From positions 56,963 to 120,962 of the forward strand of contig JAXGPL010000009.1 of the NCBI GenBank assembly GCA_040766985.1: a DNA stretch of 64,000 nt, written 5' to 3'. The position numbers and the translations under genes were made by a program. Below the pieces are notes generated by a model. That model was not told where the DNA came from, ran no database searches, and was given only the letters and a program-made list of their open reading frames with translations. Each line of letters begins with the position of its first letter. Position 1 is the stretch's first letter. Origin of the DNA: Bacillota bacterium (GTDB lineage: Bacteria > Bacillota > Sulfobacillia > JAUYEG01). Below, piece by piece: positions 3,601 to 55,000 of the stretch.

Positions 3601-4098
3601 GAGATGGCCGAGGGCGGCAGGGTGACCCTCGGCGGCTTGGCCGTCCAGATGCGGCGCATCACGACCAAGAACGGCGAGCCGATGGCCTTCCTCACCCTCG
3701 AGGACATGACGGGGCAGGTCGAAGTGGTGATTTTCCCCCGCGTCTACGCTCGCTCGGCGAAGGCCCTCGACGGGGACTCGCCCGTCCTCCTGGTGACCGG
3801 CAAGCTCCAACTGCGCGACGACGAGCCGAAGATCCTCGCTGAAGAGCTCATTCCCATCACCACCGCGGGGCGTTCAAAGGTGTACCTGCGCGTTCCCAAG
3901 AACGACCAGCGCCTCCTGGAGCGGCTACGCGCCACGCTGCAGCTGTGTCACGGGGCTTCGCCGGTTTATCTGTGTTTTGTCCAGCCCAAAAAGACGCTTC
4001 TCACCCACGAGGAGTATTGGGTTGAGCCCGGTCAGGAAATGGTGGAGATGATAGAGGATGTGCTCGGCAGAGGGGCGGTGAGCATTGTTGGACCATGA
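681..4098 (+). CDS. dnaE: DNA polymerase III alpha subunit DnaE, with a +1 frame break near 3143
   Basis: N-terminal PHP-domain signature (FVHLHVHTEYSLLDGY). The C-terminal part (IKNVGIGAINNLVEERTANGPF..., OB-fold region) continues in another frame. The break ...VRVGMAAH* versus ...AAIKNVG fits a 1-nt insertion in gcggcacattaag (~3138-3150). Confidence 0.9.
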
Positions 4099-29033: not shown

Positions 29034-30251
29034 ATGGGCAGCACAGGGAACAGCGCGGGCGGACACCTGGCCGTACTCAAGAAGGCCGTCGCAGCCACGA
29101 TAGACAGACTCGCGCCGCAATTAATCGCCATGTCCGACGACATCCATGCCCACCCGGAAATCAAGTTCGAGGAGCGTTACGCCGCAAAACTGCTGGCCGA
29201 CGCGCTTGGCGACGGCGGTTTGGCCGTTGACCGTGGTACAGCGGGCATGGAAACCGCCTTCCGGGGGCAGACCCACGCCGGTCAGGGCGGCCCGACGGTC
29301 GCCATCCTCGGCGAGTACGACGCCCTTCCCGGCCTTGGGCACGGCTGCGGACACAACATCATGGGCACCGCCGCAGTCGGCGCAGGGCTTGCTCTGCACA
29401 AGGTGTTCGGGAGCGACGAGGCCAGGACGGCCGGCCTTAACGGGCGCCTGCTGGTTCTCGGCACCCCGGCCGAGGAGGGTGGCGGCGGGAAGGTGATCAT
29501 GCTGCGCGAGGGCGTATTCCAGGGAGTGGACGCTGCCTTGATCGTCCATCCGGGCAACGCCAACCGGGCCCACGCGGAAAGCATCGCTTCCTACGGCGTG
29601 TACGTCCGCTTCCGCGGCCGTCCCGCCCATGCCGCCGCCTCGCCCCACGAAGGGGTCAACGCTCTCGATGCGCTCGTGATGACCTACAATGCGGTCAGCA
29701 CGCTTCGCCAGCAACTCAAGCCGGACGTTCGCATCCACGGGATCATTACCAAGGGCGGCGATGCGCCAAACATCATCCCGGAGTACACCGAGGGCGTCTT
29801 CATCGTCAGGTCCGCCGAAAAGGAGTACCACCAGGAAGTCATCGCCAAGTTCAAGGACTGCGCCCGTGGCGCGGCGCTTCAGACCGGGGCGACGGTCGAG
29901 TTTGCGGACATGGGGATTCCCTACGACCCGATGAAGTCGAACAGGGTGCTTGAAGACCTCTACCGCAAGAACATGACGACACTCGGCCTCCGTGAGCCGG
30001 CCGTGCCGCGCAAAGGAGCGGGTTCGACCGACATGGGCAACGTCAGCCAGGTTCTTCCGGCCATCCACCCGAGCATTGCGATCGGCCCGGAAACCCTCGT
30101 CGGCCACACACAGGAGATGTGCGAGGCATCACGCTCGGAGGACGGGCACCGGGCGGTGGTCAATGCCGCCAAATGCATGGCCATGACCGCGCTCGACCTG
30201 TTCATGCGGCCTGAGTTGGTCAAGAAGGCTTGGGCCGAGTTCAAGGGTTAG
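29034..30251 (+). CDS. M20 family amidohydrolase / metallopeptidase (M20D, aminoacylase-like)
   Basis: GHGCGHN metal-binding motif, GTPAEEGGGGK, HPGNANRAH, ~405 aa. Confidence 0.85.
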   Translation: MGSTGNSAGGHLAVLKKAVAATIDRLAPQLIAMSDDIHAHPEIKFEERYAAKLLADALGDGGLAVDRGTAGMETAFRGQTHAGQGGPTVAILGEYDALPGLGHGCGHNIMGTAAVGAGLALHKVFGSDEARTAGLNGRLLVLGTPAEEGGGGKVIMLREGVFQGVDAALIVHPGNANRAHAESIASYGVYVRFRGRPAHAAASPHEGVNALDALVMTYNAVSTLRQQLKPDVRIHGIITKGGDAPNIIPEYTEGVFIVRSAEKEYHQEVIAKFKDCARGAALQTGATVEFADMGIPYDPMKSNRVLEDLYRKNMTTLGLREPAVPRKGAGSTDMGNVSQVLPAIHPSIAIGPETLVGHTQEMCEASRSEDGHRAVVNAAKCMAMTALDLFMRPELVKKAWAEFKG

Positions 30252-30329
30252 GAAAGACCGCGGGCCGACTTCCGAGCCTGCTTCTCTTGTTGCTGCCCAG
30301 ACCCGCAAGGAAGCCGAGCACTGCCGTGC

Positions 30330-31164
30330 TTGCCGCTTGTGGGTCAGCAGCCAGCTCGCAGGTGGATCCAACCCCGGGACCTCGACGATGCTCGCCCGGC
30401 CGGTCAACTGCGCCAGCCCACGTAGTACCGCCCTGGCGAGCTGGTCGCTGCTCTCTTGGGCAGACGGCAGGAATAGGACCGGGCAACGAATCCGCCTGTA
30501 GTACTCCTCGAAGCGGTAACCGAAGTAGTGGCGCATGTAATCCAGCAGGTATTCGGCAAATCCATAGCAGAACCGCCCGGGCTCGACCTCCCGGATTCCA
30601 TACCGGACCATCGCCTCGAACGAAGGGTTCCAGAAGCCCTGGTTTTGGTACTTCTGCCTCTCGTGGACCAGCGATTCATCGACGGTCCCGAAGGTTGGCC
30701 TGCTCCGTGTAGCAATCTTGTCGATCGTCGCGGCGGCGTGGGCCTGAGAACCCAGCTTCGCTTCCCTGCCACAGGCTGTAGGGGCCGTACTCACTCGCGC
30801 TTGCCCCATCGCAGGTGATGGAGATGATCCTGTCCGGGTGGTTGGCGGCCAGAGCGACCGCGGTTTCTGCGCCCATCGAGCTGCCGACAATGTGCGCGCG
30901 CTCAATGGAGAGCACATCCATTGCCGCCACCACATCCCCCGCCAGGCTGTCGATGTGGTAGCCGGACGTAGGCCTATCCGACTTGCCATGTCCGCGCAGG
31001 TCGAGAAGCACCGGCCGGTATGGTTCCGTGAAGAAGGGCACGACCCCGTCCCACACCATGAGGTTTCCGCCGCCAAAGTGGAGGAAAACGATTGCTGGGC
31101 CTTCGCCAGGGTATTGCCTGACCTGCAGCCGGATATCGCCGACTGCCACCGTGTGATCGTGCAT
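30330..31164 (-). CDS. alpha/beta hydrolase fold protein (frame break near ~30750; 3' end approximate)
   Basis: N-terminus VFLHFGGGNLMVWDGVVPFF...LDLRGHGKSD and nucleophile elbow GSSMG are in ORF 30676..31164. The C-terminal part (RIRCPVLFLPSAQE...IVEVPG) is in the frame of ORF 30129..31361. Confidence 0.6.
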
Positions 31165-31323
31165 CGGCAGACCTCCTGTTGCCAGGGCTTTGAGGGTAGC
31201 GGTGATACTACGGGGTATCCTGGCGATTGGTTCCGGTCCTTCACGGGTGCGCGACGGTTGCGGCGGCCTCCGCCTGCCTCCGCCTGCCTCGGCCGATTTT
31301 TGCCGTCACTGGAGATCGATTGG

Positions 31324-31854
31324 CTAGTTGTCGCCCTGGTTGAGAAGGCCGGCCTTTTCAAGGGCGCCGCGTACCGCGGTGGACAAGGGGATCGCCACGA
31401 TCAGCCCAGCAGCGGAGGTCATCAGCGACGCTGGAGCGTTGCCCAGCGCTGCCTCCCAACGGCCGATCACGGCGGACCACGCCACGAGGTATCCGACGAG
31501 GGTCCACGCCGCTCCAGCGACGCACGCGATCAGGTTGAGGATGATGCTCCTCCCCCTGGCGCCGCCCGAGTGAGCGACGGAACCGACGACAAGACCAGCG
31601 ATGCCCTTGATCACGAACGACCAGAGAGTGTAGGGCGAGAACCCCATGATGATGTCGAAGAACGCGGAGCCGATCGCCCCCGCGTATCCGGCGTAGACAC
31701 CGCCGAACAGGATGCCCGACGTGAATATCGCGGCGCTCCCCAGGTGGACCATCGCACCGCTGCCGAAGGGAATCTTAATCATGGTGGCGATGATCAGCAG
31801 GGCAGACAGCATGCCGATCACAGCCATGTCGCGGACCGTGAGTTTGGGTTTCAC
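31324..31854 (-). CDS. ECF transporter S (substrate-specific) component, likely vitamin B6 (PdxU-like)
   Basis: 176-aa, 5-6 TM protein with an S-component-like N-terminus (MKPKLTVRDMAVIGMLSALLIIATMIKIPFG). Immediately downstream of pdxK. Confidence 0.65.
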   Translation of the reverse strand: MKPKLTVRDMAVIGMLSALLIIATMIKIPFGSGAMVHLGSAAIFTSGILFGGVYAGYAGAIGSAFFDIIMGFSPYTLWSFVIKGIAGLVVGSVAHSGGARGRSIILNLIACVAGAAWTLVGYLVAWSAVIGRWEAALGNAPASLMTSAAGLIVAIPLSTAVRGALEKAGLLNQGDN

Positions 31855-31867
31855 AGCCGATACCTCC

Positions 31868-32698
31868 TCAAGATCTGCTATCAGCAGTTGTGCCGTCGCA
31901 CGCCAGGAAGCTCAGGGCCTTTTCCAGAAGGACGCCTTCCCGCGCCGGTGCCTGGAGCTGATGTGTCAGGGCGATCGTGTGTGACAGGAACCTGGTCGCC
32001 AGCGCGGCGCTTGCCGCAAGGCGGTTTCCGGATAGAAGTCCTCCGATGAGCACGCTTGCGAAGATGTCCCCGGTACCAGGGTAGTTGACTGGTAGGCGGT
32101 CGAAGGGCACTTGCCACAGCCGGCCCTCTCTTCGGCTATAGGCGATGTTCGCGTGCCGTCCGTCCATTGTCGGCACGCTCTTGACAACTACCGTTTCGGG
32201 ACCGAGGTCGGCGAGCCGCCCGGCCATGTCCAGGATGGCTGCATCGGGCATCGGATCATCGGAGAACGGCTGACCGAGCAGGAAACATGCCTCGGTCAGG
32301 TTGGGTGTGACAATGGTCGCCCTGGCGACGAGCCGTCCCATCAGATGCTGCATTTGTGGGGTGTAAGTGCGGTAGAGCTTGCCGCCGTCGGCCATCACGG
32401 GATCGACGACGACGAGTTGACCTGGTCCTCCCCGGAAACCGTCGATGAACCGTCCGACCACCTCGATCTGCCGGGCCGACCCCAAAAGGCCGCTGTAGAT
32501 GCAGTCAAAGCTTAGGCCGATCTCCTGCCAGTGAGCCGCGTACCCCTCCATGCCGTCAGTGAGGTCAACGAACGTCATGTCTCCGAACCCACCGGAATGC
32601 GTACTCAGGATGGCTGTCGGGAGGGGACATACCTGAACCCCCATCGCTGAAAGGACCGGGATGATCACTGTCATCGAACATCTCCCAAAGCCCGCCAT
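31868..32698 (-). CDS. pdxK: pyridoxal/pyridoxine/pyridoxamine kinase (PdxK/PdxY, ribokinase superfamily)
   Basis: KVAAIHSMAGFGRCSMTVIIPVLSAMGVQVCPLPTAILSTHSGG (PdxY N-terminal pattern) and C-terminal GTGDIFASVLIGG (anion hole). Start at the internal Met. The longer ORF to 32890 is an upstream extension. Confidence 0.8.
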   Translation of the reverse strand: MAGFGRCSMTVIIPVLSAMGVQVCPLPTAILSTHSGGFGDMTFVDLTDGMEGYAAHWQEIGLSFDCIYSGLLGSARQIEVVGRFIDGFRGGPGQLVVVDPVMADGGKLYRTYTPQMQHLMGRLVARATIVTPNLTEACFLLGQPFSDDPMPDAAILDMAGRLADLGPETVVVKSVPTMDGRHANIAYSRREGRLWQVPFDRLPVNYPGTGDIFASVLIGGLLSGNRLAASAALATRFLSHTIALTHQLQAPAREGVLLEKALSFLACDGTTADSRS

Positions 32699-33030
32699 CG
32701 AGTGAATCGCCGCGACCTTCGGTACCGCGCTACCGGACAAGAAGACCCCTCCGCGCAAAGCAAAATGCCCCGGGAGAAACCCCAGGGCATAGGTCGTCAG
32801 GCGATCCATCGGAACGCAGTGAGACTGCGTTTGGTGAAAGTCTCCGCCCATCCAGACTTTACTGCCGGTACCGGATTCACACCGGTTCAACTGCTGGGGC
32901 TGTTGGACTTGTCCCCGCCGCCAGGCGAGGCATCACCGCCGATTGGGAATTGGGCCATAGCCCTCACCCTGCCCTGAAGACTCCGCACTCACATTATAGC
33001 GCAAGAGGTTCCTTCTCTGCAGGCGCTTCT

Positions 33031-34071: not shown

Positions 34072-34575
34072 TTAACGCTCGCCCCAGCGGTATTTGGGGT
34101 TCCGGCGCAGCGTTTCAAGGCCGCAACCAAGGCACAGGCCGTTGTGGCAGGAGATCACGTCACCACAGTCGGGGCAGCGCCATTTGGCCTCTTCGGTTTC
34201 CAGAAACCGCGCCATGCCGAGCTCTCTGATTTGCGTCAGGTTTTCAATCATGCTCATGTGGTACTTGGTGCGGTAGCGCTTGTCCAGGTCTTTGAGCCGC
34301 CGACAGGGGAAATCGTCGCACTCATAGCAGAAGCGGACAAGCCCCTTGCCCACGACCTCGCACCGGTTCGCCATGTGGGTGCAGTGCTCACCGCGTGGTA
34401 TGCAGCCGGGGCAGTATTTGCGGCGGAAGCCTTTACGCTGGAGGTCATTCTTCATAGCGAGATAGCTGAAGCATACACTGCAGTTCATACCGCAGGGAGC
34501 TATTAGTTCCTCGCGCACTCTGGTCACGCCCCATCCAGTCGGCATTGTTGCATTGTAGCGCGCAATAGGTGTCAC
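34072..34575 (-). CDS. DUF3795-like Cys-rich (putative metal/Fe-S binding) protein
   Basis: CGMNCSVCFSY, CPGCIPRGEHCTHMANRCEVV and CYECDDFPC clusters. Confidence 0.5.
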   Translation of the reverse strand: MTPIARYNATMPTGWGVTRVREELIAPCGMNCSVCFSYLAMKNDLQRKGFRRKYCPGCIPRGEHCTHMANRCEVVGKGLVRFCYECDDFPCRRLKDLDKRYRTKYHMSMIENLTQIRELGMARFLETEEAKWRCPDCGDVISCHNGLCLGCGLETLRRNPKYRWGER

Positions 34576-34615: not shown

Positions 34616-35666
34616 CTACTCCCTAACCTCGACCTTGAGGTAATCCGGGTACTCCTTCGGCCCCCCTTTGTACCTCAGTAGGCATCGCTCGCCGTCGCGG
34701 CTGAGTTCCTCGAATCCCATCAGCTTATAGGTGATGTACATAATGCGATTGCGTCCGGTTTCGATGAAATCGGCCAGAAGCTCCACCCCGTCGCTATGGG
34801 CGGCGCGCGAAAGATGGATTAACATAGCCGAACCGATGCCACGGGTCATAACGCGACAGGACATCAAGAGCAGCTTGATCGTCAGTGCAGTAGTGGACTT
34901 CTCCGCCAGAGCCAGGCCGATCTTGCCGTAGCTGCCGAACCTGTCCGTCAACTCAGCGATGAAAAAGAGGTGCCTGGGCGAATGGATCAATGCGCGAAGT
35001 TCCTCGTAGCCATACGTGATCCCGGTGGAGTTGAGCTGGTTGGTCCGCAGCGTCAGCTCCTCGACCCGCTCCAAGTCGCCTTCCGCGACCCCGGAAAGGG
35101 TCAGGCGCATGTCAAGCGTCTGGAGAAAGGCGTCGGCATTGTCGCCGAAGCGCTGCTCCTCCTCCTGCCGCCGGAAATCCTCCACGTACATGCGACGGCG
35201 CAGCCTGGAGTCTTCACTGACGATGCTCGGCGTGAATTCCGGAAGCGCCGTAAGCCCAAGGTAATCGGCAGCATTGTAGACGCGGACCTGCGGGTGGTGA
35301 AAACGGACTTCCTCGCGCTCAAACGGTTGGTCGTCGATGAAGGCGAATGCATCCAGCCCGAGGTTTAGAAGCCTGGCAATCTCCGCGACGGAGTCCGATT
35401 TGCTGTACCAGCCAATCTGCGGTACCAGGAAGTATTCCTCCAGCCCGAAGCGCCGGAGCGCCGCGAGCGCATCGGCAGGCTCGTTCTTGCTGGCTATCGA
35501 CAGGAGGATGCCGCGGCGGTCAAGCTCCTGGATGACCTCGGTCACGCCCTCGCGCAGGGTAACCTCCTTGTTTTCCAGGAGGATTCCGTCCCATAGAGTG
35601 TTGTCCAGATCCCACACCAGGCACTTGATCGTCTTTGGTTTGGCCTTGGCCTTTGGTTCAGCCACG
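34616..35666 (-). CDS. FkbH-like HAD-IIIC family protein (carrier-protein-loading phosphatase/acyltransferase)
   Basis: HAD motif I in the FkbH signature context (KCLVWDLDNTLWDG), motif II (SIASKN), motif IV (FIDDQPFE) and a C-terminal FkbH-type extension. Start at GTG 35666 with a GGGGGAG RBS, overlapping the ACP stop by 9 nt. Confidence 0.75.
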
Positions 35667-35942
35667 GTGCTCCCCCCTAGCCCTGTTGACCACGCCCGCG
35701 ATAGACGAGATGGTTCGGAAGTTCTCCTCAGTGATCTCGGCGTTGGCAATCCGTATGCCGAACGTCTTTTCCAGGTGGACCACCATTTCGAGAGCAAAGA
35801 GCGAATTGATGTAACCGCCCCTGAAGAGGTCCGTGTCGTACCCGAGCCCCGCAGCCCTTCCCTTGTTCCTAAAGAACTCCAGGATCCTCTCCCGTTCGTC
35901 AGGGGGAGGTGGCCCTTGTTCCCTGTCGATCCGATTCGTCAT
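35658..35942 (-). CDS. acyl/peptidyl carrier protein (DltC-like ACP)
   Basis: 94 aa with a phosphopantetheine attachment motif (GYINSLFALEMVVHLEKTFGIRI). Confidence 0.75.
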   Translation of the reverse strand: MTNRIDREQGPPPPDERERILEFFRNKGRAAGLGYDTDLFRGGYINSLFALEMVVHLEKTFGIRIANAEITEENFRTISSIAGVVNRARGEHRG

Positions 35943-35943
35943 C

Positions 35944-37776
35944 CTAACGCAGCCCCTCCACGTACGCGACTAGTTGCTCGGGAGTGAGGTCGTTGCCGAC
36001 CGTGTTGCGTCTAAGGCACAGCAGGCTCTGCGGCAGGCCCTTGACCACGGTGTTCACGCCCTCTTCGACTGTGAGCGAGATCTTGATGCCCATCTCCCAG
36101 AGCAAGACCTCCGCCAGTTCCGTGTGGATCCCGAACGGATAGGCGTAGGCCGTGACCGTGGTGCCGAGCGTGCCTTCGATCTCCTCCCGGGAGGCTCCGA
36201 AGTCGGAACGGAACGCCGCGACGTAGTCGGCCTCGCTCTCATCCTGCATCCTGAGCACACCCCGCCGGAAGTGGTCGGCGTCAAGCCGGGGCGAGTGGTG
36301 CATGTCATAACTATGGCTCTGGATGTCCAACACCCCGGCCTCGATCCACGGTCTGGCCTCTTCCAGCGAGAAGTGCGGGATTATTTCCTCGTCTTTGTCC
36401 TTGTACGTGTCCTTGCCGATCGACACCCCGATGACACTAACCGTGGCACACATGCCATACTCGGCCAGGATCGGTGCCGCAACCTCAAGGTTGCTCCGGT
36501 AGCCGTCGTCAAAGGTAATTACAAGCGGCTTCGTCGGCAGAGGCGTCCCGCGCTCCACGAAGTCAACCAATGCGGATAGCGGGACGGTTTTGAAGCCCGC
36601 TTCGCTAAGGGCCTTGATTTGGGCACGGAAGGTCTGCTCCGTGACCGTGCTCTCGCCCGGCTGATCGCTGATATGGTGATAGAGCAGGATCGGCACCTGC
36701 CGGTCGTGCCCAAGGTCTTCTGGAGGAGCGCTCAAGTACCCTTTTAGCCTGGCTTCGACGTTATCTGCAGTGACCTTGACGCCGAAGTCCCCTGGTACGT
36801 AGACGCCCTCGTCGCCGAACATCCTTGCCAAAGCCATAGCCCCGACGGCGTTGCGGTGATGGTACATGTCGTAGAAGTATCGCGGTTCGTAGGCCACGCT
36901 GTGATAGCCTGTGAAGTCCCAGAAGTCAGTTACCGCAGCCAGCCTGCGGAAAAAGGCCATGAGTTCGCCCTTGGGAAACAGGTCTAGCTCCTGAGCAGAC
37001 ATCGGTGAGATGATCAGGGTAAAAGTCGCTCCGGCCGCCTCGCTGCACTGCTTGATAACCGCGATGGCCTCCAGGCAATCGTCGATATGTGGGAGCGATT
37101 CGTACGGACCGAATCCCCGCCCGAACTCCGGGTACTTGGCCATGTACTCCTCAAGGGAACCGACCGGCTCCGTGTCGCGGAGGGATTTGTCGTAGACGCC
37201 GGTCTCCGGCTGGAAGACCCTGTTGGCGTCAACCAGATAGGATCTGGAGAGCAGGCCTCTCAGTTTCTCTACGCTGTAGCTGGGATTCGATAGAAGATAC
37301 CGTGTATAGAAACGGACGAGGTTGGAGCCGTCGACTTTAGCGTGCAGGTTTCCCTTGACGGGATCGTCCACGTAGCCAAACCTGGCCAACTCCTCGAGCC
37401 CCATGTTGAGCACAATGTGGTCGGCCTTGTATCGTGACAGGACATACCTGGCCGTCATGCAGGCGTCGTAGAGGTCGCCGCCATACATCGTCAGATTGTA
37501 GAAGCTGGCCCCGCCGAAATAGCGGTTGAGCAACTCCGTTGGGTAGGAACTGGTCTTGGAGCAGCCGATGATGTAGGAATCGTAGTTGTCATGGTACCGG
37601 TCAAGGTAGCCGATCTTGGCCGTCCGGGGGTTCTGGGTCATGTCGTACGCCCACCATTCGACGAGCTTGTCCCCAAAGACTCCAAACGGGTCGACCAACG
37701 CGTTGAAGCCGGCGAATATCCCTGCGAAAAGAATGGAGCTGGCCAGAAAGACCAACAGCCACTTGTTGAGCGGCAT
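35944..37776 (-). CDS. fusion protein: N-terminal TM anchor + DltD/DHHW-like (SGNH-fold) domain + C-terminal NodB-type polysaccharide deacetylase (CE4)
   Basis: C-terminal half carries CE4 motifs (ILLYHHI, VITFDDGYRSN, ...HSYDMHH). The N-terminal half has a GCSKTSS serine motif and FYDMYHHRNAVG (DHHW/DltD-like). Start at the internal MPLNKWLLVFLASSILF. Confidence 0.7.
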   Translation of the reverse strand: MPLNKWLLVFLASSILFAGIFAGFNALVDPFGVFGDKLVEWWAYDMTQNPRTAKIGYLDRYHDNYDSYIIGCSKTSSYPTELLNRYFGGASFYNLTMYGGDLYDACMTARYVLSRYKADHIVLNMGLEELARFGYVDDPVKGNLHAKVDGSNLVRFYTRYLLSNPSYSVEKLRGLLSRSYLVDANRVFQPETGVYDKSLRDTEPVGSLEEYMAKYPEFGRGFGPYESLPHIDDCLEAIAVIKQCSEAAGATFTLIISPMSAQELDLFPKGELMAFFRRLAAVTDFWDFTGYHSVAYEPRYFYDMYHHRNAVGAMALARMFGDEGVYVPGDFGVKVTADNVEARLKGYLSAPPEDLGHDRQVPILLYHHISDQPGESTVTEQTFRAQIKALSEAGFKTVPLSALVDFVERGTPLPTKPLVITFDDGYRSNLEVAAPILAEYGMCATVSVIGVSIGKDTYKDKDEEIIPHFSLEEARPWIEAGVLDIQSHSYDMHHSPRLDADHFRRGVLRMQDESEADYVAAFRSDFGASREEIEGTLGTTVTAYAYPFGIHTELAEVLLWEMGIKISLTVEEGVNTVVKGLPQSLLCLRRNTVGNDLTPEQLVAYVEGLR

Positions 37777-37790
37777 TCCGGCCACCTCCC

Positions 37791-39209
37791 CTAAAACTCC
37801 ATGTAGAGGAAATTCGAGACGGTCCCCATCAAGAACAGCGAGGCGACCAGCGCAGCCCCGGCCAGCGCCGCATGGTACCACCTGGGGGCGAACCGCTCGG
37901 AGATATCCCTGGTGCTTGGCGCAAAGAAGCAAATGCCCGCGCCTGCCAACAGCAGGGCAACCGCCGGCCCGTTGGCCCGGACATAGGCCAGTCCCTGGGC
38001 GAAGAACGCGGAGGTTTCCGTGAACAGGGGCCGGATATCGAGGATTGTCTTATACACGGAAACCGCTTGCGACACCGAACTGCTGTCGAAGAGCACGCGC
38101 GTGAGGACCATCAGGGTGAAAGTCGTCGCCCAGCCCCAAAAAGCAGGCAGGCGCTTGCCCTTGAGGTTCATGATGTTCGCCACGCAGACCAGCACCCCGT
38201 TGGCGGCTCCCCAGAGGACAAAGTGCCAACCCGCACCGTGCCAGAGCCCGGAGACAAGAAAGGTGGCCATGATGGCCAGTACCATCTTGCCGATCCGGTC
38301 GCCGAAGCGAAAGATGCTCCGGAAGATGTGCTCGTAGAAGAAATTCGACACCGTGATGTTCCAACGCCGCCAGAAGTCGGCGAAATCGACCGCCTTGTAT
38401 GGGGAGTCAAAGTTGTGGGGCAGCTTGATGTTGAATAAGAGGGCCAGCCCCAGCGCCATGTCGATGTAGCCCGAGAAGTCAAAGTAATAGGCGAAGGTGT
38501 AGGCGAGGACACCGCCCCACGCCGCAAAGAAACCTCCGGCGGCCCCGCCGTAGAACGCCCGCGCATGGGCGATCAACGGGTCGGCCAGGATGATCTTTTG
38601 AGCGCAGCCAAGGGAGAACAGCACAATGCCCAGGGCGATGTTCCTGCCGTCGATGCCTGCGCGGGCGCCCGGCCGCGGCAGTTGAGGAACGACGTCGCCG
38701 TGGCGCGAGATCGGGCCGACGATCAAATGCGGGAAGAACGTGACAAAGGCGCAAAAATCGAGCAAAGGGCCCGGCTCGGTCCGGCCCCGGTAGGTGTCGA
38801 CCACGCACGTGATGATGATGAAGGTAAAGAAGGAGATCCCGAGCGGGAGCCCTGTGTTTTGATGCGGGATCGCCAGCCCGAGCAAGTGATTCAGGTTGTC
38901 GATGAAGAAGTTGGCGTACTTGAAGTACAGTAAGAACCCCAGGTTCTCAACGATGGCCCCCGCGAGAACGAGCTTGGCCGTTGCGGTGTCCTTTGGGTAT
39001 CGGCTGAACAGGCGGACCGCGCCGTAGTTGAGGAGCACGGTGAAGACCAACAGGGGCAAAAAGCGCGCGCTGCCCTGTGCGTAGAAACACAGCGATGCCG
39101 CCACCAGCCAGACCTTTGCCGCAGCCGCGCCGAGATACCTGGCGGCCAGCCAATAGCCGGCCAGAGCCAGGGGGAAGAAGACGAAGATGAATGCGTAGGA
39201 AGAAAAGAC
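37791..39209 (-). CDS. MBOAT family membrane-bound O-acyltransferase (DltB/AlgI-like)
   Basis: ~470 aa, >10 TM, conserved His region (LWHGAGWHFVLWG) and typical MBOAT core. GTG start at 39209 with a GGAGGA RBS. Confidence 0.85.
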   Translation of the reverse strand, partial: VFSSYAFIFVFFPLALAGYWLAARYLGAAAAKVWLVAASLCFYAQGSARFLPLLVFTVLLNYGAVRLFSRYPKDTATAKLVLAGAIVENLGFLLYFKYANFFIDNLNHLLGLAIPHQNTGLPLGISFFTFIIITCVVDTYRGRTEPGPLLDFCAFVTFFPHLIVGPISRHGDVVPQLPRPGARAGIDGRNIALGIVLFSLGCAQKIILADPLIAHARAFYGGAAGGFFAAWGGVLAYTFAYYFDFSGYIDMALGLALLFNIKLPHNFDSPYKAVDFADFWRRWNITVSNFFYEHIFRSIFRFGDRIGKMVLAIMATFLVSGLWHGAGWHFVLWGAANGVLVCVANIMNLKGKRLPAFWGWATTFTLMVLTRVLFDSSSVSQAVSVYKTILDIRPLFTETSAFFAQGLAYVRANGPAVALLLAGAGICFFAPSTRDISERFAPRWYHAALAGAALVASLFLMGTVSNFLYMEF

Positions 39210-39309
39210 CACTGCATCCTCCGGCGACCGACGTCGCAATACAGTATAGCACTAGTAGACATAAGTCGCCAAGCTGGCCTTTTGCGCCCATGCGGCACTG
39301 CGGACCGCG

Positions 39310-40030
39310 GTGGGACGGGCTGCGCGCAAAGGTGTGCCGGCCGACGTGACCGTCAAGGCCGTGCTCTTAGCTATGGAGCTGGCCGCGCCGGGCCCTTCGT
39401 TTACTGATGCGGTCTTTGAGGCGGCTCTGGCGTGCGTTGGCGAGGGCGAGGCCACCCGGATCCTATCGTACGGCCGTCGCCGCGACCGGGAAAGGTCACT
39501 GGCCGGCGCCCTCCTGTCGCGGCGGCGCTGGCCGACGCGCTGACGCAGGAGGACCAGGGCAATGGCTGTACCCCGGCCCCGTGGGAATTCTGCATCCTCC
39601 GCGGGCCGACGGGCCGCGTCCCTCGCCTGGGGGCCGGCAAGGCACCCCGCGCCGATTTCAACCTGTCCCATGCCGGAGCGTGGGTCGGTGTCTCGCGGCG
39701 CGGAGAATCCCGGGTCGGGGTGGATGTCGAGGGGTCCGCCCTGTCGAGCCTGCACTGCTTCGGCGTTGCCTTATGCCGGATGAGTATGAGCGGGTGATCG
39801 CCCTTCCGCCCCGAGAGCGGTTGGCGGAGTTCTTTCAGGCCTGGACGGCCAAGGAAGCCCGGCTCAAGGGTACCGGCGTGGGGCTTGCGACACCTCTGGA
39901 TTCGGTCCCCGCCGCTCCGCCCGACGGCTGGAGCCTGGCCCATCTCTGGCTGGATCAAAACCACCTCGTCGCGATGTGCGCTGAGCAGCCGGCTGTGCCG
40001 CCGCGGCGGGCCGGACGTCGTGACGATGGC
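39310..40030 (+). CDS. 4'-phosphopantetheinyl transferase (Sfp/EntD-type), split over three frames
   Basis: RILSYGRRRDRERSLAGALLSRR (frame A), DFNLSHAGAWVGVSRRGESRVGVDVE (frame B), FFQAWTAKEARLKGTGVGL (frame C). Divergent from the MBOAT/ACP operon. 3' end approximate. Confidence 0.6.
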
Positions 40031-40067
40031 TATGCTCCTTCAACGCCTGCCGGCGTTGCGTGGCGCC

Positions 40068-41300
40068 CTAGACCCTGGTCCGCGGTTTGCGTTTGCGCAA
40101 GTAGAGCCGCAGGTGGAGAAGGGCGCCGATTCCTGCGGCCGGCACGAGAAGCACCGCGGCCGCGGTGAGCGGTGCGCGCTTCAACAGCGGCGGCCTCGGG
40201 TCGGGCGAATCCCCCGGTTCCACCGGCGGCAATTCGGGCTCTTCCGCCGGGGGGGTCCCAGCGGGCGGGTCAGCAGGCGGCGCGGCGCTTCCGACCTTGA
40301 TGTAGTCCGGTTTGACCTCGCTATTGCTTCCCGCCTCGTTGGCTACGGTGAGGCGTACTGTGTAGGTGCCTGGCCCGTCATAGGTGTGGGACGGATTCCG
40401 GGCGGCACTGTCGGGAGTGCCGTCGCCATCGAAGTCCCACTGCCATGAGGTCGGCCCGCTGGACGACCGGTCCTCGAACTTCACGGTCAGAGGCGCGCTG
40501 CCCGACGTGACATCGGCGGCGAATCCCGCCACCGGCGCCTCGGGGGCGTCAGGCGCGGGCTCCGCGCTGCAGATAACCAACTCCGCAACGCACTGGATCG
40601 AGAGCCCGGTCGTTGTCGGATACTTCTCCCCGCCGTTGTGGAAGTAGTACCAGTACTCCTCCTCAGCCGCCTCGTGCCAATCCCAGTTGCCAAAAGATGT
40701 GCCTCTGCCACGGGTTGGCCGAGTGTCCGCAAACCAGATCAGGCATCCCCTCGCCAAACCCGCTGTCCGGCATCTGCCCGTCCTTGCACCAGCAGATCAC
40801 CATCGGGCCCTCACGTTCCGAGTACTCATAGACGTTCTTGTAAGCAAAGTCCTGCTGAGGCCGTCACTCGCCTTGACCCTCAGTTTGTCGCCCTCTGCCA
40901 TGCCCCCAACCAGTTCAGAGGTCCCTGACATTGGTGCCCTTGAGGGCTCCCATGTCCTTGACATTGGTGTCTTCGGCAGGATCCAGCGCAGCGCCTGCTC
41001 GATTGTTTCGTCCGGGCCGTTGGCAAACACCGGGCCCTGGTGGTAGTAGTGCGTAACTCCATCTCCGAGGACCGGCATGTTGCGCGGGTCCATCAGCCAG
41101 CGGTAGTCCACTGTCTTTTCCGCCAGCACCGTCTCCCCGTCGGATGCCAGCTTCTTGATAGTCAAGGCTTTGAGTTGGGAGGCGGCAGCTTGGCGGTCGG
41201 TGGAAAGATGACACCCAGCACCATCGACAAGACGAGGGGCCCCGCAGCAGGAACGCCACAGGTTCCCGCCGGCTGATCCGGCGCTGACGCAGAGCCTCTC
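40068..41300 (-). CDS. surface protein X1: SO-family-like conserved domain + PKD domain + C-terminal TM anchor; multiple frame breaks
   Basis: PKD motifs (PLTVKFEDRSS...WQWDFDGDG...NPSHTY...GTYTVRLTV) and a C-terminal TM with a basic tail. The upstream region matches the X2/SLH-protein domain (LAEKTVDYRWLMDPRNMPVLGDGVTHYYHQGPVF..., WDWHEAAEEEYWYYFHNG) but spans at least three frames. Confidence 0.5.
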
Positions 41301-45849: not shown

Positions 45850-48800
45850 TCAGATATCCAGAGCGTTGACCAGAGCCGTGAGAGCTTCCGCCCTGGTGGC
45901 GTTGCCGTGAGGCCGCACGGTGTTGTCGGGATATCCCTTCAGGATCCCCGCCTCTGCAGCGGTAGCCACTGCGTCAACCGCCCAATTCGAGATGTCGTCT
46001 CCGTCCGCGAAGCCGGTGGCGCCGGTGACCACGTCAAGATCCAATGCCCGGACAATCATCGTCGCCATCTGCTCGCGGGTGATCCGGTCGTCGGGGCCAA
46101 AGCTGTTGCCCCCGTATCCCTCGACAATCCCCAGGGCCGCAGCCACGGAAATGCTGTCCTTGGCCCAGTGATCGGCGGTGTCGGCAAAGACCGCGCCCGT
46201 CTCAGCAGTCAGCTTGAGGGCCTTTACCAGGATGGTAGCAAACTCCGCCCTGGTAATGGTTGCGTCGGGCCGGAAACTGCCGTCGGGATAGCCGGTTACC
46301 ACCCGTGAGGACACCAGTTCTTCGATATTCGCCTGAGCCCAATGCCCCGCGATGTCATTGAGGGCGGGAAGGGCGATCAGCTCGATGCTCGCGATCTGCG
46401 AGACCGACATTGAGCCGCTCACAGACGGGCCCACCAGCCGGAGCGGCCAGTTGCTGTCCGACTCGGGAATCGCGGCCCCGTTGAGCGTGTTGGCCACTAT
46501 GTAGTCGCTGTTGCGGATGATGTCCCTGCTGCTGATCGTGACCGAATACCCGTCCGCAGCCGTGACCGCCACTAGGTATCCCGTCGAAGCGAGTTGTTGG
46601 TTGAAGGCATTGTCGGTGTGCTTATCCGCGTCATCAACAAATCCCGCGAGGAACCAAAGGGGCATGCCTTCCCAGACGCGACCCTTCGAGTCCGTGAACG
46701 ACGCCTTGTGGTTCGCTCCGAACTGGCATGCGAGCGCCTGTTCAAAGTAGGTCTTGTTGATGTCTTCCTTCAGGCCGCCGACGGATTGGCCATCAAGCTT
46801 CAGAGTCCAATCGTTCACGGGGACCGCGAAGACCTCAATCTTGGTTATGTACTTTGCGGACAGGCCTGCGCACGACGGGTACTGGACGTTGTCGGCGTAG
46901 TAATAGTGCCAGTACTTCTCGGGCAAGGTCTCGTGCATATCCCACTGCCCATACACGTGGTCGCCGCCAGGCGCGAAGAACAAACGCATGCCGTCCTTGT
47001 ACCCCGGCACGTATTCGCCGTCGCCCCACCAGGCCAGAATGGCGTCGCCCTGGCGAGCCTGGACCGCCGGATCCGGGTAGATGGAGGAGTACGGCAGCGT
47101 TGTTTCATAGCCGTCATCGGCGACGAACACGATCTCCGTGCCTGACCCCATACCGCCGACAAGGTCGCAGAGGTCGCTGACCCGGGTGCCCTTGACGGCG
47201 TTCTCGATCTTGAAACCGCCGGGATAGGTCTCCGCCTGATCCCAGACGTCAGCCGGATTGCTGGTAATTCCCTCGTAGCGGTACTTCGTCACCCCGTCGC
47301 CGACTACGGGAAGGTTGGCTTCCATCCATAGATAGTCGACGGTCTTTTCCTCGACGACGGTGGTCTGGTCCGCGCCGTACTTGACGATATGGAGCTCCGG
47401 TATCGGAAGAGCCGTCTCAAACTCGATGAGTTCGATCTCGGCGATATTCCCGACGCTGGTTCCGCTGAACGTGCCGTCGGGCCTGATGACTCCCTGACCG
47501 ACTAGCCGTAGCGGCCCGGACTCCGTCAGCGCCTGCCCATTGAGCTTGTCAGCCACAATGTAGCTACTGCTGTTGGCGATGTCCGCGCTCGCGAACTCCT
47601 TGGCGTATCCATCCCCGGCCTTTACTACTACGGTGTAACCGGCCTGAGCTTGAGTGAAGCTAAACGAGTGCGGCTCGCGGTCATCCACCCAGCCGGCCAG
47701 GAACCAGAGGGGCATGCCGGACCAGACATTGCCGTCATTGTCCGTCCACTCCAAGAGGTGCCCCGAATTCGGGCAGGCGAGGCCGGCCTCGAACTCAGCC
47801 TTGGCGAAGACATCAGTGATCTTGCCGGTCAGGCTAAGGTTCCAGCTCCCGGCCCCGGCAGGGGGCGTAAGCAGTTCGGGGATCGCAATCTTGGCGATCT
47901 GACCAACCGCGGAGCCGCCGAGGCTGCCATCGTCCTTGGTGACGCCGGAACCGACCAGGCGGAGCGGCCACGCATCCGTGAGCGGCGCTCCGTTGACCTT
48001 GTTGGCGACGATGTAGTCGTCGCTTCCGGCGATGTCGGCACTGGTGAACGTCTTGGTAAACCCATCTGCAGCTGAAACCTCGACGCTATAGCCGTCGGCC
48101 GCCAACTGCTGGTTGAAGGTCCACCCGCTGCCCGGCTCGATGTCGTCGACTACGCTCACCAGAACCCAGAGCGGCACGCCCGACCAGACGTTACCGTCCT
48201 TGTCGGTCCACTCGCGGTAGAAACCCGAAGTCGAGGAGGCCAGATCGCTCTCAAACTCCTCTTGGGTGAGCGTGTCTCCTATCTCGCCGGACATTTCCAG
48301 GGTCCAGCCCTCGGTGGGCACGGGGAGGTCGGAAAGCTCGATCTTGACGATGTTGCCGACCTGTTGTCCGCCGAGCACCTCGGGGCCCTTAAGGTGAAGC
48401 GGCCAGCAATCCTTGCCGCTCGCGGTCTGCTCCGGCAGGGGATCTCCGTTGAAGGTATTGGCGACGATGTACCCGGCGTTGCGCGCGATCGCCGAGCTGT
48501 CGAACGTGGCTGACCACCCGTCGCCCGCGATGACATTGACCTTGTAGTCCTGGGCGGCCAGGCTGTCGCTGAAGTTGATGTGATCGCTGCCGGCATCAGG
48601 GTCATCGTCGACCATGCCGACCAGCAGCCAGAGTGGAACCCCGCCCCAGACGTTGCCTTCGGGGTCCGTCCAGTTGACCTGGTGCCCTGAGGCCGAACAC
48701 GCGAGGCCTTGCTCGAAGTACGCCCTGGTAACGCTGGACGCCTTGGCCCCAGTGAGCTGAAGCGTCCAGTCTCCGGTGGGCGCCGGTGGCGCAGTCCCGG

Positions 48801-49320
48801 TGGATGCGACGGTCTTGACGGCCGCTGTTGCTGCGGCCTTGACGGCGCTGAGGTCTGTCTCATCGTCGATGCCGGCGGCGTAGTAAAACTCAACCCGGTC
48901 GCCGGCATGCAGCTCGATGAGGTTGAGGGCGCCGGCGGCGTTGTTGTAGCCGTCCTTGAAGACGTCGTTGACATAGGCGAACCACTTGCTGCCGCCCTTG
49001 ACGTAGCCATAGGTGCCAATATTGTCCAGCAGGAGTGCGCCGGATGCCCCGATGTTCTTGTCTGTCACATCAAAGGAGAACCCTCCGGCGACACCGGCCG
49101 CACGAAGGGCCCCAAGCGGCGTCGCTTCGCTGACCTCGTACGAGGCTCCGGAGTTGTAGGCAGTCACGCTGAAGTTGCCGGTGGGGGACAGCACAACTGT
49201 GCCTTCGAAAAGCACATCGATTGTCATTGCACTCGCCTGCGCCGGCGACAACAAGACCGCTATCGCCAACAGCAGGGTAAACAGCTTTCTGCCGAATCCC
49301 TTTCGCGTAAGGTAGTTCAA
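45850..49320 (-). CDS. large S-layer-homology (SLH) surface protein with 4-5 tandem SO-family-like repeats, an X domain and 3 C-terminal SLH domains
   Basis: Sec signal peptide. Four ~150-aa repeats (WTLQLTG...WGGVPLWLL...DGWSATF...GDPL...WPLHLKGPEV...VGNIVKIEL and variants). Central X domain (TVDYLWMEANLPVVGDGVTKYRY...KYITKIEVF). Three SLH domains (IAGHWAQANIEELVSSRVVTGYPDGSFRPDATITRAEFATIL...). Confidence 0.8.
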   Translation of the reverse strand: MNYLTRKGFGRKLFTLLLAIAVLLSPAQASAMTIDVLFEGTVVLSPTGNFSVTAYNSGASYEVSEATPLGALRAAGVAGGFSFDVTDKNIGASGALLLDNIGTYGYVKGGSKWFAYVNDVFKDGYNNAAGALNLIELHAGDRVEFYYAAGIDDETDLSAVKAAATAAVKTVASTGTAPPAPTGDWTLQLTGAKASSVTRAYFEQGLACSASGHQVNWTDPEGNVWGGVPLWLLVGMVDDDPDAGSDHINFSDSLAAQDYKVNVIAGDGWSATFDSSAIARNAGYIVANTFNGDPLPEQTASGKDCWPLHLKGPEVLGGQQVGNIVKIELSDLPVPTEGWTLEMSGEIGDTLTQEEFESDLASSTSGFYREWTDKDGNVWSGVPLWVLVSVVDDIEPGSGWTFNQQLAADGYSVEVSAADGFTKTFTSADIAGSDDYIVANKVNGAPLTDAWPLRLVGSGVTKDDGSLGGSAVGQIAKIAIPELLTPPAGAGSWNLSLTGKITDVFAKAEFEAGLACPNSGHLLEWTDNDGNVWSGMPLWFLAGWVDDREPHSFSFTQAQAGYTVVVKAGDGYAKEFASADIANSSSYIVADKLNGQALTESGPLRLVGQGVIRPDGTFSGTSVGNIAEIELIEFETALPIPELHIVKYGADQTTVVEEKTVDYLWMEANLPVVGDGVTKYRYEGITSNPADVWDQAETYPGGFKIENAVKGTRVSDLCDLVGGMGSGTEIVFVADDGYETTLPYSSIYPDPAVQARQGDAILAWWGDGEYVPGYKDGMRLFFAPGGDHVYGQWDMHETLPEKYWHYYYADNVQYPSCAGLSAKYITKIEVFAVPVNDWTLKLDGQSVGGLKEDINKTYFEQALACQFGANHKASFTDSKGRVWEGMPLWFLAGFVDDADKHTDNAFNQQLASTGYLVAVTAADGYSVTISSRDIIRNSDYIVANTLNGAAIPESDSNWPLRLVGPSVSGSMSVSQIASIELIALPALNDIAGHWAQANIEELVSSRVVTGYPDGSFRPDATITRAEFATILVKALKLTAETGAVFADTADHWAKDSISVAAALGIVEGYGGNSFGPDDRITREQMATMIVRALDLDVVTGATGFADGDDISNWAVDAVATAAEAGILKGYPDNTVRPHGNATRAEALTALVNALDI

Positions 49321-52088: not shown

Positions 52089-55000
52089 TCAGGGTATCAG
52101 CCGGACCTCGAACTGCTCTACCTGACCGGTCTCGTTGCTTGTGATGCAAATCCGGTACACACCAGGGTCAAGCTTCTTGGTGGACCAGTTGAACACCCAC
52201 ATGAGTTCCTTGGCTTCATACCTGAGACCTGTCTTGCCAGGCGTGGCTACGGGGCGGAGTTCGGGCCCCCCAACCAAGCTGATGGTGATCGCCGGATTGG
52301 CCGTTGAGCTAGGTACGACTGCGCCCTGGAAGTCGGTGTACCGCCATCTCAGCGGTAATACCGCCCCAACCTTGGACACTCCCTCCGCGTTGTCGAAGGG
52401 GGCCAGGAGGCCTGTCATCCCGTAGTGGATCGAAAGACTGTCTCCGCCGTATTGGAGATCGTAGTCGGCCGGCAACGCGAGCGTTCCCAGCCGGATAGCG
52501 TAGATACCAGGTTTTTCGCCCGGATCCCTTGCCAATGTACCGGTGAAGTCGTCTCCGGTGACCAAGCTTCCCGATGCGACCCTGTAGGTCAGGATCGGGT
52601 CGTCCTCACCGTACAGCTTGGTCTGGGCGTCCGCGACGACCACGACCTGCCGGTGCATGATCGTTAACTGTGCTGCCACGTAGGTGAGTTTGTAGTTTGC
52701 GCTCAGAGCCAGGCTGCCCTGGCGGATTTCGTAGCGCCCGACGGCCTCGCCGGTTTCCCGGGTCAAGGTGCCCGTGAATCCGTCTGAGAACGAGAGGCTG
52801 CCGTCCGCTATATGGTAGGTAAGGTCGGGGTCTGACTGGCCGTAGATCTTGGTCTTCGCGTCCGCGGTAACGGTGACGGGCCTGGGAACGATGCTAAGGG
52901 CCGCAGGCTCGAACCGCAGATCGTAGTTGCTGTTGATGTCAATGTCGCCCCGCGCGATGCAGTAGGTGCCCACATCTTCGCCGCCTTCGCGGCTTGGGCT
53001 GCCACTGATCACGTCCCCGGGCACCACACTGCCCGAGGTGATCTGATAGGTCAAGGGCGGGTCGTCCTCGCCGTAGGTCTTCGTCTTTGGTTCGGCGGCA
53101 ATGCAGATGGACCTCGGCGTAATGGTGAAGTCTGCCGGCACATAGGTGACGGCATAGTTGTCGCCGAGGGTCAGAGTGCCCTGCAGGATCTCGTAGACGC
53201 CCACGTTCACGCCGGCCTCACGGCTCAGCGCCCCTGTGAACGTGTCCGCAAAGGCTATGCTGCCGGCCGTGATCCGGTACGTGAATTCCGGATCGCTATC
53301 GCCGTAGATCTTGGATAGCCCGGGATCTGCGGCCACCGTAACCGGCCTGGCTGTGATCGTGAGGGCCGCCGGTACGTAGGTCAACGTGTAGTGGTCGCCA
53401 AGGGCCAGGGTCCCCTGGTTGATCGAGTAACTGCCGGCATCTTCGCCCGCCTCGCGAGCGAGCTCCCCAGTCAAGTCGGCGGGCGAAACCAGGCTACCCC
53501 CTATGATCTGATAGGTAAGGGCCGGGTCGCTGTCGCCGTAGGTCTTGCTCTTGGCGTCGGCGGCAACGGTGACGACCCGCCGGGCAATGGTCAGGGTGCC
53601 CGGGACGTAGCTCAGCTGGTAGTTGGGGCCAAGCGCAACGCTGCCTTGGCCGATCGTGTATTCACCCGGCGCCTCACCCTCCTCGCGGGCGAGCGCCCCC
53701 GTAAAGGCGTCCGCGAACGCGAGGTTTCCGGACATAACCTGATACGTCAGGTCGGGGTCGCTGTCGCCGTAGGCTTTGATTTTGGAGTCGGCCGCAATGG
53801 TCACCGGCCGTGGCGAGATCGTCAGACTTGCCGGGGCATAGCTCAGCGTGTAGTTGGCGCTGAGAGCCAGGCTGCCCTGTGAAATCGGGTAGGTACCTAC
53901 TGCTTCGCCTGCGGCACGGCCGAGAGCGCCGCTGAATCCGTCGGTGAACGCCAGGCTACCCGACGTGATCGTGTATGTCAGAGGCGGATCGAGGTCGCCG
54001 TACGTCTTGCCCGCCGCGTCGGCGGAGACCGTGACCGGTTTCGGCGAGATGGTCAGGTTGGCCGACACGAAGGTAATCGCGTAGTTGTCGTCAATTGCGA
54101 CTGTGCCCTGCTGGATCGAGTAACTGCCGGTACCTTCGCCGGCCGACCGGGTTAGGGCGCCGCTGAATCCGTCGGACGGCAACAGGCTTCCCGAGGCTAT
54201 GTGATAGGTGAACGGGGGGTCGGCATCCCCGTAGACCTTAGCCGCCGGGTCAGCCGCGATGGTTATCGACCGCAATGAAATCGTCAGATCGGCCCCCACA
54301 TAGCTAAGCGCGTAGTTGGAGCTGAGGGCAAGGTCGCCCTGCCTGATCGGATAGGTCCCCGCTGATTCGCCTGCATCCCGCGTCAATGCACCGGTAAACT
54401 CGTCCTGTGAAACCACGCTTCCCGACGTGATCCGATACGTTAGCGCCGGGTCAACCTCTCCGTAGTCCTTGGCCTTGGCGTCGGCGGTAACTGTAACCGG
54501 CCTCGGCGATACGGTCAGAATACCCGGCACGTAGGTCAGTCTGTAGTTGGAGTTGAGCGCTACCGTGCCCTGCTGGATCTCGTAGCTCCCGACGTTATCT
54601 CCGGGCTGGCGAATGAGGGTCCCCGTGAAGGTATCCGCCGACACGAGACTCCCGGAGGTGATCTGGTACGTCAGGGCCGGGTCGGGATCACCGTAAGCCT
54701 TGGCCTTCGCCTGGGCGGTGATCGTCACAGGCCGGGGCTCGATTGTCAGGTTGGCCGGAATGTATGTCAGGGCGTAGTTGTTGCCCGGCGAGACGTAAAA
54801 GTAGGTGTTGGATATCTGGTACTGGCCCAGCTCCTCGCCGGCGACCCTACGCAAGCTGATCCATATGCGGTCCGAGCCGACCAGATCTCCAGATGAGATC
54901 TGCCAGGTCAGGGCCGGGTCCGCATCTCCATAGGGCTTGTTCCTGCCGTCGGCGGCGACCGTCAGCGGCCGCTGCTCAACCGTCAGGTAGGCCGGGACAA

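Follow-up and report, generated by a model that had tools for sequence, protein, structure and literature searches.

An MBOAT-SGNH gene cassette with a putative FkbH-type loader, predicted to decorate a cell-envelope polymer with glycerate

A 64,000-nucleotide stretch of contig JAXGPL010000009.1 from a Bacillota bacterium (the whole of which is referred to here as the window) contains a compact gene cassette that probably encodes a carrier-dependent MBOAT-SGNH pathway, acylating a polymer of the cell envelope with a glycerate unit taken from glycolysis. The cassette is a four-gene unit on the reverse strand (34616-39212) with nearly no spacing between its members, which follow in the order MBOAT acyltransferase (37791..39212, about 472 amino acids), membrane-anchored, extracytoplasmic SGNH-CE4 fusion protein (35944..37776, 610 amino acids), acyl carrier protein (ACP; 35658..35942, 94 amino acids) and FkbH-family protein (34616..35665, 349 amino acids). 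A gap of 14 nt lies between the MBOAT and fusion genes and one of 1 nt between the fusion and ACP genes, and the ACP and FkbH genes overlap by 8 nt, with the carrier stop overlapping the FkbH start. A fifth gene, frameshifted and in divergent orientation on the forward strand (about 39310..40070), encodes an Sfp-type phosphopantetheinyl transferase (PPTase). All five genes, which had been named in a preliminary description of the window, were recovered with Pfam and NCBIfam profiles and tblastn. The G+C content at third codon positions is 0.75-0.83 in all four open reading frames (ORFs) of the cassette, a codon bias of the coding type, and the chosen starts match the lengths of identical database proteins (P0001, 349 amino acids; P0121, 610; P0241, 473). 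The names under which the database holds these proteins are generic, namely 'HAD-IIIC family phosphatase', 'polysaccharide deacetylase family protein', 'MBOAT family O-acyltransferase' and 'AlgI' or 'DltB'.

The FkbH-family protein is the predicted loader of the carrier. It scores 275.7 bits with TIGR01686 (cutoff 146.65), aligning to profile positions 2-320 of 323, and 69 bits with the HAD-IIIC model TIGR01681. The candidate catalytic residues are Asp19, Asp21 and Thr23 of a DxDxT motif together with Cys270 in LLLMSCRVM, which by analogy with OzmB-type enzymes is the putative acyl (glyceryl-S-enzyme) site. The DxDxT motif and the LLLMSCRVM Cys are invariant in an alignment of 19 sequences that includes P0094, a protein from a polyketide synthase (PKS) context. 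The architecture is complete, including the C-terminal domain that carries the Cys, and the protein is therefore an FkbH-type HAD enzyme, as first described, and no bare phosphatase. Its relatives number in the thousands. P0094 is 57-59% identical and is encoded with an ACP, an acyl-CoA dehydrogenase, a 3-hydroxyacyl-CoA dehydrogenase and type I PKS genes, the canonical set for methoxymalonyl-ACP. Enzymes of this family convert 1,3-bisphosphoglycerate to glyceryl-S-ACP in methoxymalonyl-ACP and tetronate pathways (PMC7489565, PMC3679948). Because this chemistry is established for the family and the motifs are shared across both contexts, glyceryl-S-ACP is the best prediction for the product of the cassette enzyme, which would use 1,3-bisphosphoglycerate as its substrate. 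A variant, in which the machinery works as proposed with a different acyl group, is unlikely: FkbH would take another phosphorylated acid, or glyceryl-ACP would be converted elsewhere, so that a lactyl, hydroxymalonyl or pyruvyl group, for example, is made before the MBOAT step. Methoxymalonyl pathways do oxidize glyceryl-ACP further, some FkbH domains feed non-glycerate products such as the lactate-type starter of the bryostatin loading module, and the specificity is not readable from the sequence. However, the active-site motifs of the cassette protein are identical to those of FkbH from PKS contexts, and no tailoring gene (dehydrogenase or methyltransferase) is conserved with the cassette or present in the window.

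FkbH-type proteins also occur in other settings. In a Streptosporangium locus (L001:3432-5238) a carrier gene and an FkbH gene, whose product is 57% identical to ours, are followed by a GNAT gene, with no PKS within the 6 kb available, and this is another non-canonical FkbH context. An FkbH-domain gene, cj1302, lies in the flagellar glycosylation locus of Campylobacter jejuni, and some O-antigens are known, from their chemistry, to contain N-glyceroyl amino sugars. The latter two cases provide a precedent for the decoration of glycans with glycerate-type groups by FkbH-like enzymes, presumably on the cytoplasmic side of the membrane.

The 94-residue carrier matches PF00550 with 25.1 bits (cutoff 20.8) and is 34-40% identical to the FkbH-adjacent ACPs of L001 and L002. 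Ser47 in the motif INSLFA is the phosphopantetheine attachment site, and (N/D)SLFA is kept in at least 90% of 60 aligned homologues, so the attachment Ser assumed at the outset is indeed retained.

All biochemically studied pairs of FkbH and ACP belong to natural-product pathways, and P0094 and P0100 are FkbH-ACP pairs in PKS and GNAT contexts. These pairs would fit a small-molecule pathway of the polyketide, tetronate or butenolide type, with glyceryl-ACP as a building block and the MBOAT and fusion proteins serving in export, resistance or tailoring. Such a pathway is very improbable here and poorly supported. The 64 kb were searched by tblastn with a DltA-like ligase, two PKS proteins and FkbI-type and FkbK-type dehydrogenases as queries, and contain no AMP-binding ligase, no PKS ketosynthase (KS) or acyltransferase (AT) and no FkbI- or FkbK-type gene; Pfam scans of the flanking and larger ORFs likewise gave no AMP-binding domain. 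The statements of the preliminary description that neither an adenylation enzyme nor PKS genes accompany the carrier in the window thus hold. Near the cassette in 57 loci, no KS, AT, FabH-like, adenylation, FkbI/FkbK or tailoring gene is conserved, and the sister cassette described below, with its DltA-like ligase, points to envelope acylation. The other neighbors in the window (among them dnaE, a peptidase, DUF3795 and DUF456 proteins, ABC transporters, a LysM protein and the surface proteins described below) show no sign of secondary metabolism in Pfam scans, and assignment as a PKS or tetronate locus was rejected, as KS, AT, FabH, FkbI and FkbK genes are all missing. Comparison with the FkbH/FkbJ systems (FK520 FkbH, OzmB, Tmn16 and Mad7/Mad14) shows the same full-length FkbH with the same motifs and a dedicated adjacent ACP. 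In contrast to those systems, the cassette lacks the dehydrogenases, O-methyltransferase, FabH-like enzyme and PKS, and a membrane acyltransferase would consume the glyceryl-ACP.

That acyltransferase matches PF03062 with 94 bits, and its sole NCBIfam match is the DltB model TIGR04091, at 135 bits under a cutoff of 375. The closest solved structures to its AlphaFold model (predicted local distance difference test score 88.3) are those of DltB (6bug and 8jem; E 1e-11, 22-23% identity). With residues numbered on the translation of 37791-39209, W323-H324-G325 is invariant among 42 MBOAT sequences, and the C-terminus, F467-L-Y469-M-E-F472 (FLYMEF), is an FxYxxF acyl-shuttle motif in which F467, L468, Y469 and F472 are invariant. 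This motif had been overlooked in the preliminary description. The six-residue shuttle resides on the microprotein DltX in the Dlt pathway and is fused C-terminally in PatA-type MBOATs; the acyl group reaches the SGNH partner by way of the shuttle Tyr, as shown for PatA and DltX (PMC12148441). With FxYxxF on the MBOAT itself a separate DltX is not needed, and none was noted in a search of small ORFs that was not exhaustive. To our knowledge, DltB is the only MBOAT with a carrier-protein donor.

The operon is therefore a hybrid of two known layouts, a fused shuttle motif on the one hand and a carrier with its loader on the other. As in Dlt, a small carrier gene lies beside the genes for an MBOAT and a membrane-anchored extracytoplasmic transferase of the SGNH fold. 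Unlike Dlt, there is no DltA, and FkbH, the predicted loader, has no need of an adenylation step driven by ATP, which would make the transferred group a hydroxy acid and not an amino acid; the shuttle motif is fused to the MBOAT C-terminus in a segment that DltB itself lacks, in place of a separate DltX; the DltD-like domain is fused to a CE4 domain; and all scores fall under the Dlt equivalog cutoffs. MBOAT/SGNH pathways other than Dlt have no carrier protein, since they use acyl-CoA, and the donor in O-acetylation of the PatA/PatB, AlgI and WssH types is acetyl-CoA (PMC12148441), whereas here a carrier and a loader are part of the operon. The cassette MBOAT thus shares its own C-terminal shuttle motif with the PatA/AlgI-type enzymes, yet would draw on a carrier-bound donor of the Dlt type.

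The fusion protein consists of an N-terminal transmembrane helix, an SGNH domain with a DltD-like fold and a CE4 domain similar to PgaB and IcaB. The candidate triad of the SGNH domain is Ser73/Asp303/His306, with the Ser (GCSKTSS) and the DxxH motif invariant. A search of the full library with this domain found 1100 cluster representatives, comprising fusions of ~600 amino acids and more distant stand-alone forms of ~350 amino acids, some of which have sub-threshold matches to Pfam DltD and DUF1574. The domain is an unnamed branch in the DltD neighborhood of the SGNH superfamily and by no curated test a member of DltD. Its first assignment as DltD/DHHW-like is accordingly correct for the fold, which is DltD-like, and incorrect as to membership in the Pfam DltD (PF04914) or DHHW family. 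The CE4 domain scores 54.4 bits with PF01522, and its best solved relatives are the poly-N-acetylglucosamine (PNAG) de-N-acetylases BpsB, PgaB and IcaB. His367, Asp423, Asp424, His488 and His493 are invariant in 45 homologues and align with the WH, TFDDGY and SHxxxxH motifs of PgaB, which supply its catalytic His/Asp and its metal-binding Asp/His/His. In sequence, the C-terminal domain is closest to these de-N-acetylases, and the His, the Asp-Asp pair and the His-x4-His all align, but there is no PNAG synthase at the locus, the CE4 domain is fused to SGNH, and the scores are far under the equivalog cutoffs (91 bits versus 322 for PgaB and 50 versus 248 for IcaB).

The distribution of the cassette was examined by an alignment-based scan of one genome per species, which found 354 genomes with a relative of the fusion protein, whereas a scan of genome contigs with a single fusion sequence gave no matches. 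The best 80 loci were retrieved, and nearly all come from metagenome-assembled genomes of Clostridia from guts and digesters. The order MBOAT-fusion-ACP-FkbH is complete in 50 of the 80, with ACP and FkbH paired in every one of the 50, and the same cassette is present in six further metagenomic loci; contigs of 2.6 Mb and 5.1 Mb are among those that carry it. Such a recurrent gene order is far beyond chance. The survey bears out the expected co-occurrence of FkbH, ACP and MBOAT outside PKS loci, as the four genes form a translationally coupled unit that recurs, amid unrelated flanking genes, in 50 or more species genomes; among 57 loci no neighbor beyond the four genes is broadly conserved.

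A sister operon (class B, as opposed to the FkbH-containing class A) is present in 18 of the 80 loci (L030, L031, L034, L037, L039, L044, L045, L051, L053, L060, L061, L074-L076, L078, L084, L086 and L087). It contains an amino-acid adenylation enzyme, usually a GNAT, a carrier, an MBOAT and the fusion protein, as in L051:5631-11827, and the adenylation enzyme scores 318 bits with TIGR01733 and about 270 bits with DltA models. Both classes have the same fusion architecture, a carrier protein and an MBOAT with an FxYxxF-type end, which reads FLYF[QNSD]F in class A and FIYxQ[FY] in class B and is found in every cassette MBOAT. They differ in the loader, which in class B is DltA-like, usually accompanied by the GNAT and placed upstream, and in the present cassette is FkbH. 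This comparison is the strongest support for FkbH standing where DltA stands, and it supports the role first proposed for FkbH, that of a loader in place of DltA. The fusion proteins of class B form a single clade in a neighbor-joining tree and are 42-47% identical to those of class A, and the SGNH and CE4 halves are 44-45% identical between and 48-56% identical within the classes. The MBOATs of the two classes are only about 30% identical. Fusion proteins that are alike combined with MBOATs that are far apart fit a shared acceptor and different donors, and in our reading the fusion protein is a conserved acceptor-side platform for which the loader and the matching MBOAT were exchanged once. 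Because class B joins the same kind of fusion protein to a DltA-like enzyme, the extracytoplasmic half of the system is a shared platform with interchangeable cytoplasmic loaders. Class B itself is uncharacterized; it would amount to aminoacylation of the Dlt kind, coupled to a deacetylase in the fusion protein.

The fusion protein also allows a different assignment, in which CE4 is the main activity and SGNH acts as an esterase or editor, the protein as a whole removing acyl groups from a polymer (by de-O-acylation or de-N-acetylation), while the MBOAT, ACP and FkbH proteins serve another acylation, directed for example at lipids. Hydrolases exist in both the CE4 and SGNH families, clusters for O-acetylation of peptidoglycan pair transferases with an esterase, and Ape1 is among the fold matches of the SGNH domain. 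We consider this arrangement improbable, since the longest structural overlap of the domain is with the transferase DltD, the known MBOAT-SGNH pairs are transferases (PMC12148441), and the fusion gene directly follows a shuttle-motif MBOAT gene in 68 of the 80 loci. The remaining loci are mostly truncated contigs.

In the pathway that we favor, the Sfp-type PPTase, or another PPTase of the cell, would convert the carrier to its holo form at Ser47, as suggested by the conservation of this residue. FkbH would then take 1,3-bisphosphoglycerate, strip the 3-phosphate at the HAD DxDxT site and pass the glyceryl group as a thioester from Cys270 to the carrier, giving glyceryl-S-ACP; these steps are predicted from the chemistry of the family and the identity of 57-59%. 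The MBOAT may dock the loaded carrier at the cytoplasmic face in the manner of DltB and DltC, and by analogy with DltB/DltX and PatA the glyceryl group would move, dependent on His324, to Tyr469 of the extracytoplasmic FLYMEF segment. From this tyrosyl ester it would be handed to Ser73 of the SGNH domain, a step predicted from the family, the residues, the synteny and the Dlt and PatAB mechanisms. The SGNH domain would finally place it on a hydroxyl group or a freed amine in a surface glycopolymer containing N-acetylhexosamine (HexNAc), possibly a teichoic acid, a secondary cell-wall polymer or peptidoglycan. The CE4 domain most likely removes N-acetyl groups from HexNAc of the same polymer, either preparing the acceptor or co-modifying it. 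The scheme is least certain as regards the acceptor polymer and what CE4 does. Transfer of glycerate by the MBOAT to a surface polymer, as initially suggested, is thus supported by the architecture and the comparison of loci, while the glyceryl group and the acceptor are parts that we infer.

A lead to the acceptor comes from about 10 related loci and L090, where a GT2-GtrA polyprenyl-phosphate sugar synthase (best NCBIfam matches AglJ and PpgS) is encoded near the cassette, accompanied by a large membrane protein of 620-634 amino acids without a family match (examples are L090:14635-17636, L041:6052-7923 and L073:13190-14245). The pairing resembles the multi-component machineries by which teichoic acids are glycosylated on the outer side of the membrane, and may point, as a lead only and not in general, to a HexNAc attached extracellularly as the target. 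A more specific and rather doubtful possibility is an N-acyl exchange, in which CE4 strips the acetyl group from N-acetylglucosamine or another HexNAc and SGNH re-acylates the amine via the MBOAT Tyr, with a glyceroyl group in the FkbH cassette and an aminoacyl group in the sister cassette. If true, many gut Clostridia would carry N-glyceroyl-hexosamine on a teichoic acid, a secondary cell-wall polymer or peptidoglycan, and the exchange would be a new kind of editing of the cell wall after its assembly, in which the cytoplasmic loaders can be interchanged.

Several observations weigh against glyceryl transfer to an envelope polymer. The functions of the cassette are predicted throughout, and the biochemistry is wholly inferred. 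We know of no glyceroyl ester or amide attached by an extracytoplasmic route to an envelope polymer of a Gram-positive organism. The gene context does not identify the acceptor, given that the GT2-type pair is found in only the loci listed above. The carrier scores 26.8 bits with the DltC equivalog (cutoff 68), and further ACP models match equally well or better, so that docking of the carrier to the MBOAT is an assumption. The N-terminal 360 residues of the fusion protein gave only noise against Pfam, even at E 10, which leaves the similarity to DltD without a sequence-level match, and a PDB profile search with the SGNH domain did not reach DltD; with both sets of profiles blank, the domain is placed by fold comparison only. 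The fusion gene stands without an adjacent MBOAT, carrier or loader in L010:2645-4486 and L013:10001-11833, which also suits the assignment of SGNH as an editor; in L013 a 640-residue protein of no known identity is encoded upstream of it. In L050:2028-5303 an MBOAT and a fusion gene are present with no ACP or FkbH within 5.4 kb downstream. Lastly, the PPTase gene, frameshifted in the window, lies beside the cassette in only about 10 of 57 loci, and is therefore no core part of the system.

The PPTase is read in three successive frames, with frameshifts near 39522 and 39731 and perhaps another near 40010. When the intact 274-residue orthologue from L004, the closest relative, was used as a tblastn query, three different frames of the window were matched in order, and the joined translation scores 49 bits with PF01648 (ACPS) and 33 bits with PF22624 (AASDHPPT_N), scores that appear only once the frames are joined. 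An intact orthologue occupies the same divergent position in L004 and L005. The gene reported in the preliminary description is therefore real and divergent, but it is no single intact ORF and contains two or more frameshifts. The gene for the DNA polymerase III alpha subunit, dnaE (681-4098, forward strand), is likewise split over two frames at about 3145; the ORF 681-3149 stops within the HHH_6 domain and the ORF 2896-4098 carries on. Because dnaE is essential and also split, the frameshifts in both genes are probably assembly (indel) errors, and the possibility that the PPTase is a true pseudogene was set aside for the same reason. A third frameshifted gene may lie at 30129-31361 (reverse strand), where an alpha/beta-hydrolase ORF (30676-31164) covers just profile positions 1-107 of 245, is overlapped by a long ORF in another frame without a hit and is followed by two downstream ORFs without a Pfam hit.

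In the gap of ~100 nt between the MBOAT gene and the divergent gene, upstream of MBOAT, a sigma-70-like promoter candidate, TTGGCG-18-TG-TATACT, is located at 39243..39272 on the reverse strand; it is a weak candidate from a consensus scan only, which gave 2 sites in this gap versus 1.4 expected. A protein with a PKD domain and a hydrophobic, basic tail at its C-terminus is encoded at 40068-40757 on the reverse strand, its 3' end abutting or overlapping the frameshifted PPTase tail. On the other side of the cassette, 40 nt after FkbH and on the same strand, lies a DUF3795 Cys-rich gene (34072-34575) that is not kept beside the cassette in other genomes. Farther along is an FMN (flavin mononucleotide) riboswitch (32836-32985, reverse strand; 66.9 bits, gathering score 66.2), lying upstream of the genes for a PfkB/phosphomethylpyrimidine-kinase-like protein (31868-32890) and an ECF riboflavin S-component (31324-31854). 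Two large surface proteins are encoded on the reverse strand, one of 1156 amino acids with three SLH domains and a molybdopterin-oxidoreductase-like domain (45850-49320) and one of 1453 amino acids with 13 MBG_2 repeats (52089-56450). The SLH domains of the former imply that a secondary cell-wall polymer is part of the wall.

No system linking FkbH or HAD-IIIC proteins with an MBOAT, DltB or polysaccharide was found described in the literature; co-mentions of FkbH and MBOAT came from papers whose titles concern cyanobacterial aeruginosin and suomilide. The overall logic is that of the known MBOAT-SGNH/Dlt systems; the novelty lies in the loader, in the acyl group predicted for it, in the CE4 domain of the fusion protein and in the pairing of a carrier-borne donor with an MBOAT that bears its own Tyr motif. 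The system contradicts the current generalization that an MBOAT bearing a fused FxYxxF motif takes its acyl group from acyl-CoA and works with no carrier protein. If the proposed pathway is correct, it would be a second carrier-protein-fed MBOAT pathway beside Dlt, in which the cytoplasmic loader is a swappable module, either FkbH or an adenylation enzyme. FkbH, so far an enzyme of polyketide precursors, would gain a role at the cell envelope, and surface chemistry would draw straight on the glycolytic intermediate 1,3-bisphosphoglycerate, without any activation that depends on ATP. A previously undescribed glycerate decoration, combined with de-N-acetylation, would then be expected on many uncultured Oscillospiraceae and further Clostridia of animal guts and digesters, and it could alter their resistance to lysozyme and antimicrobial peptides, phage adsorption and recognition by the host.

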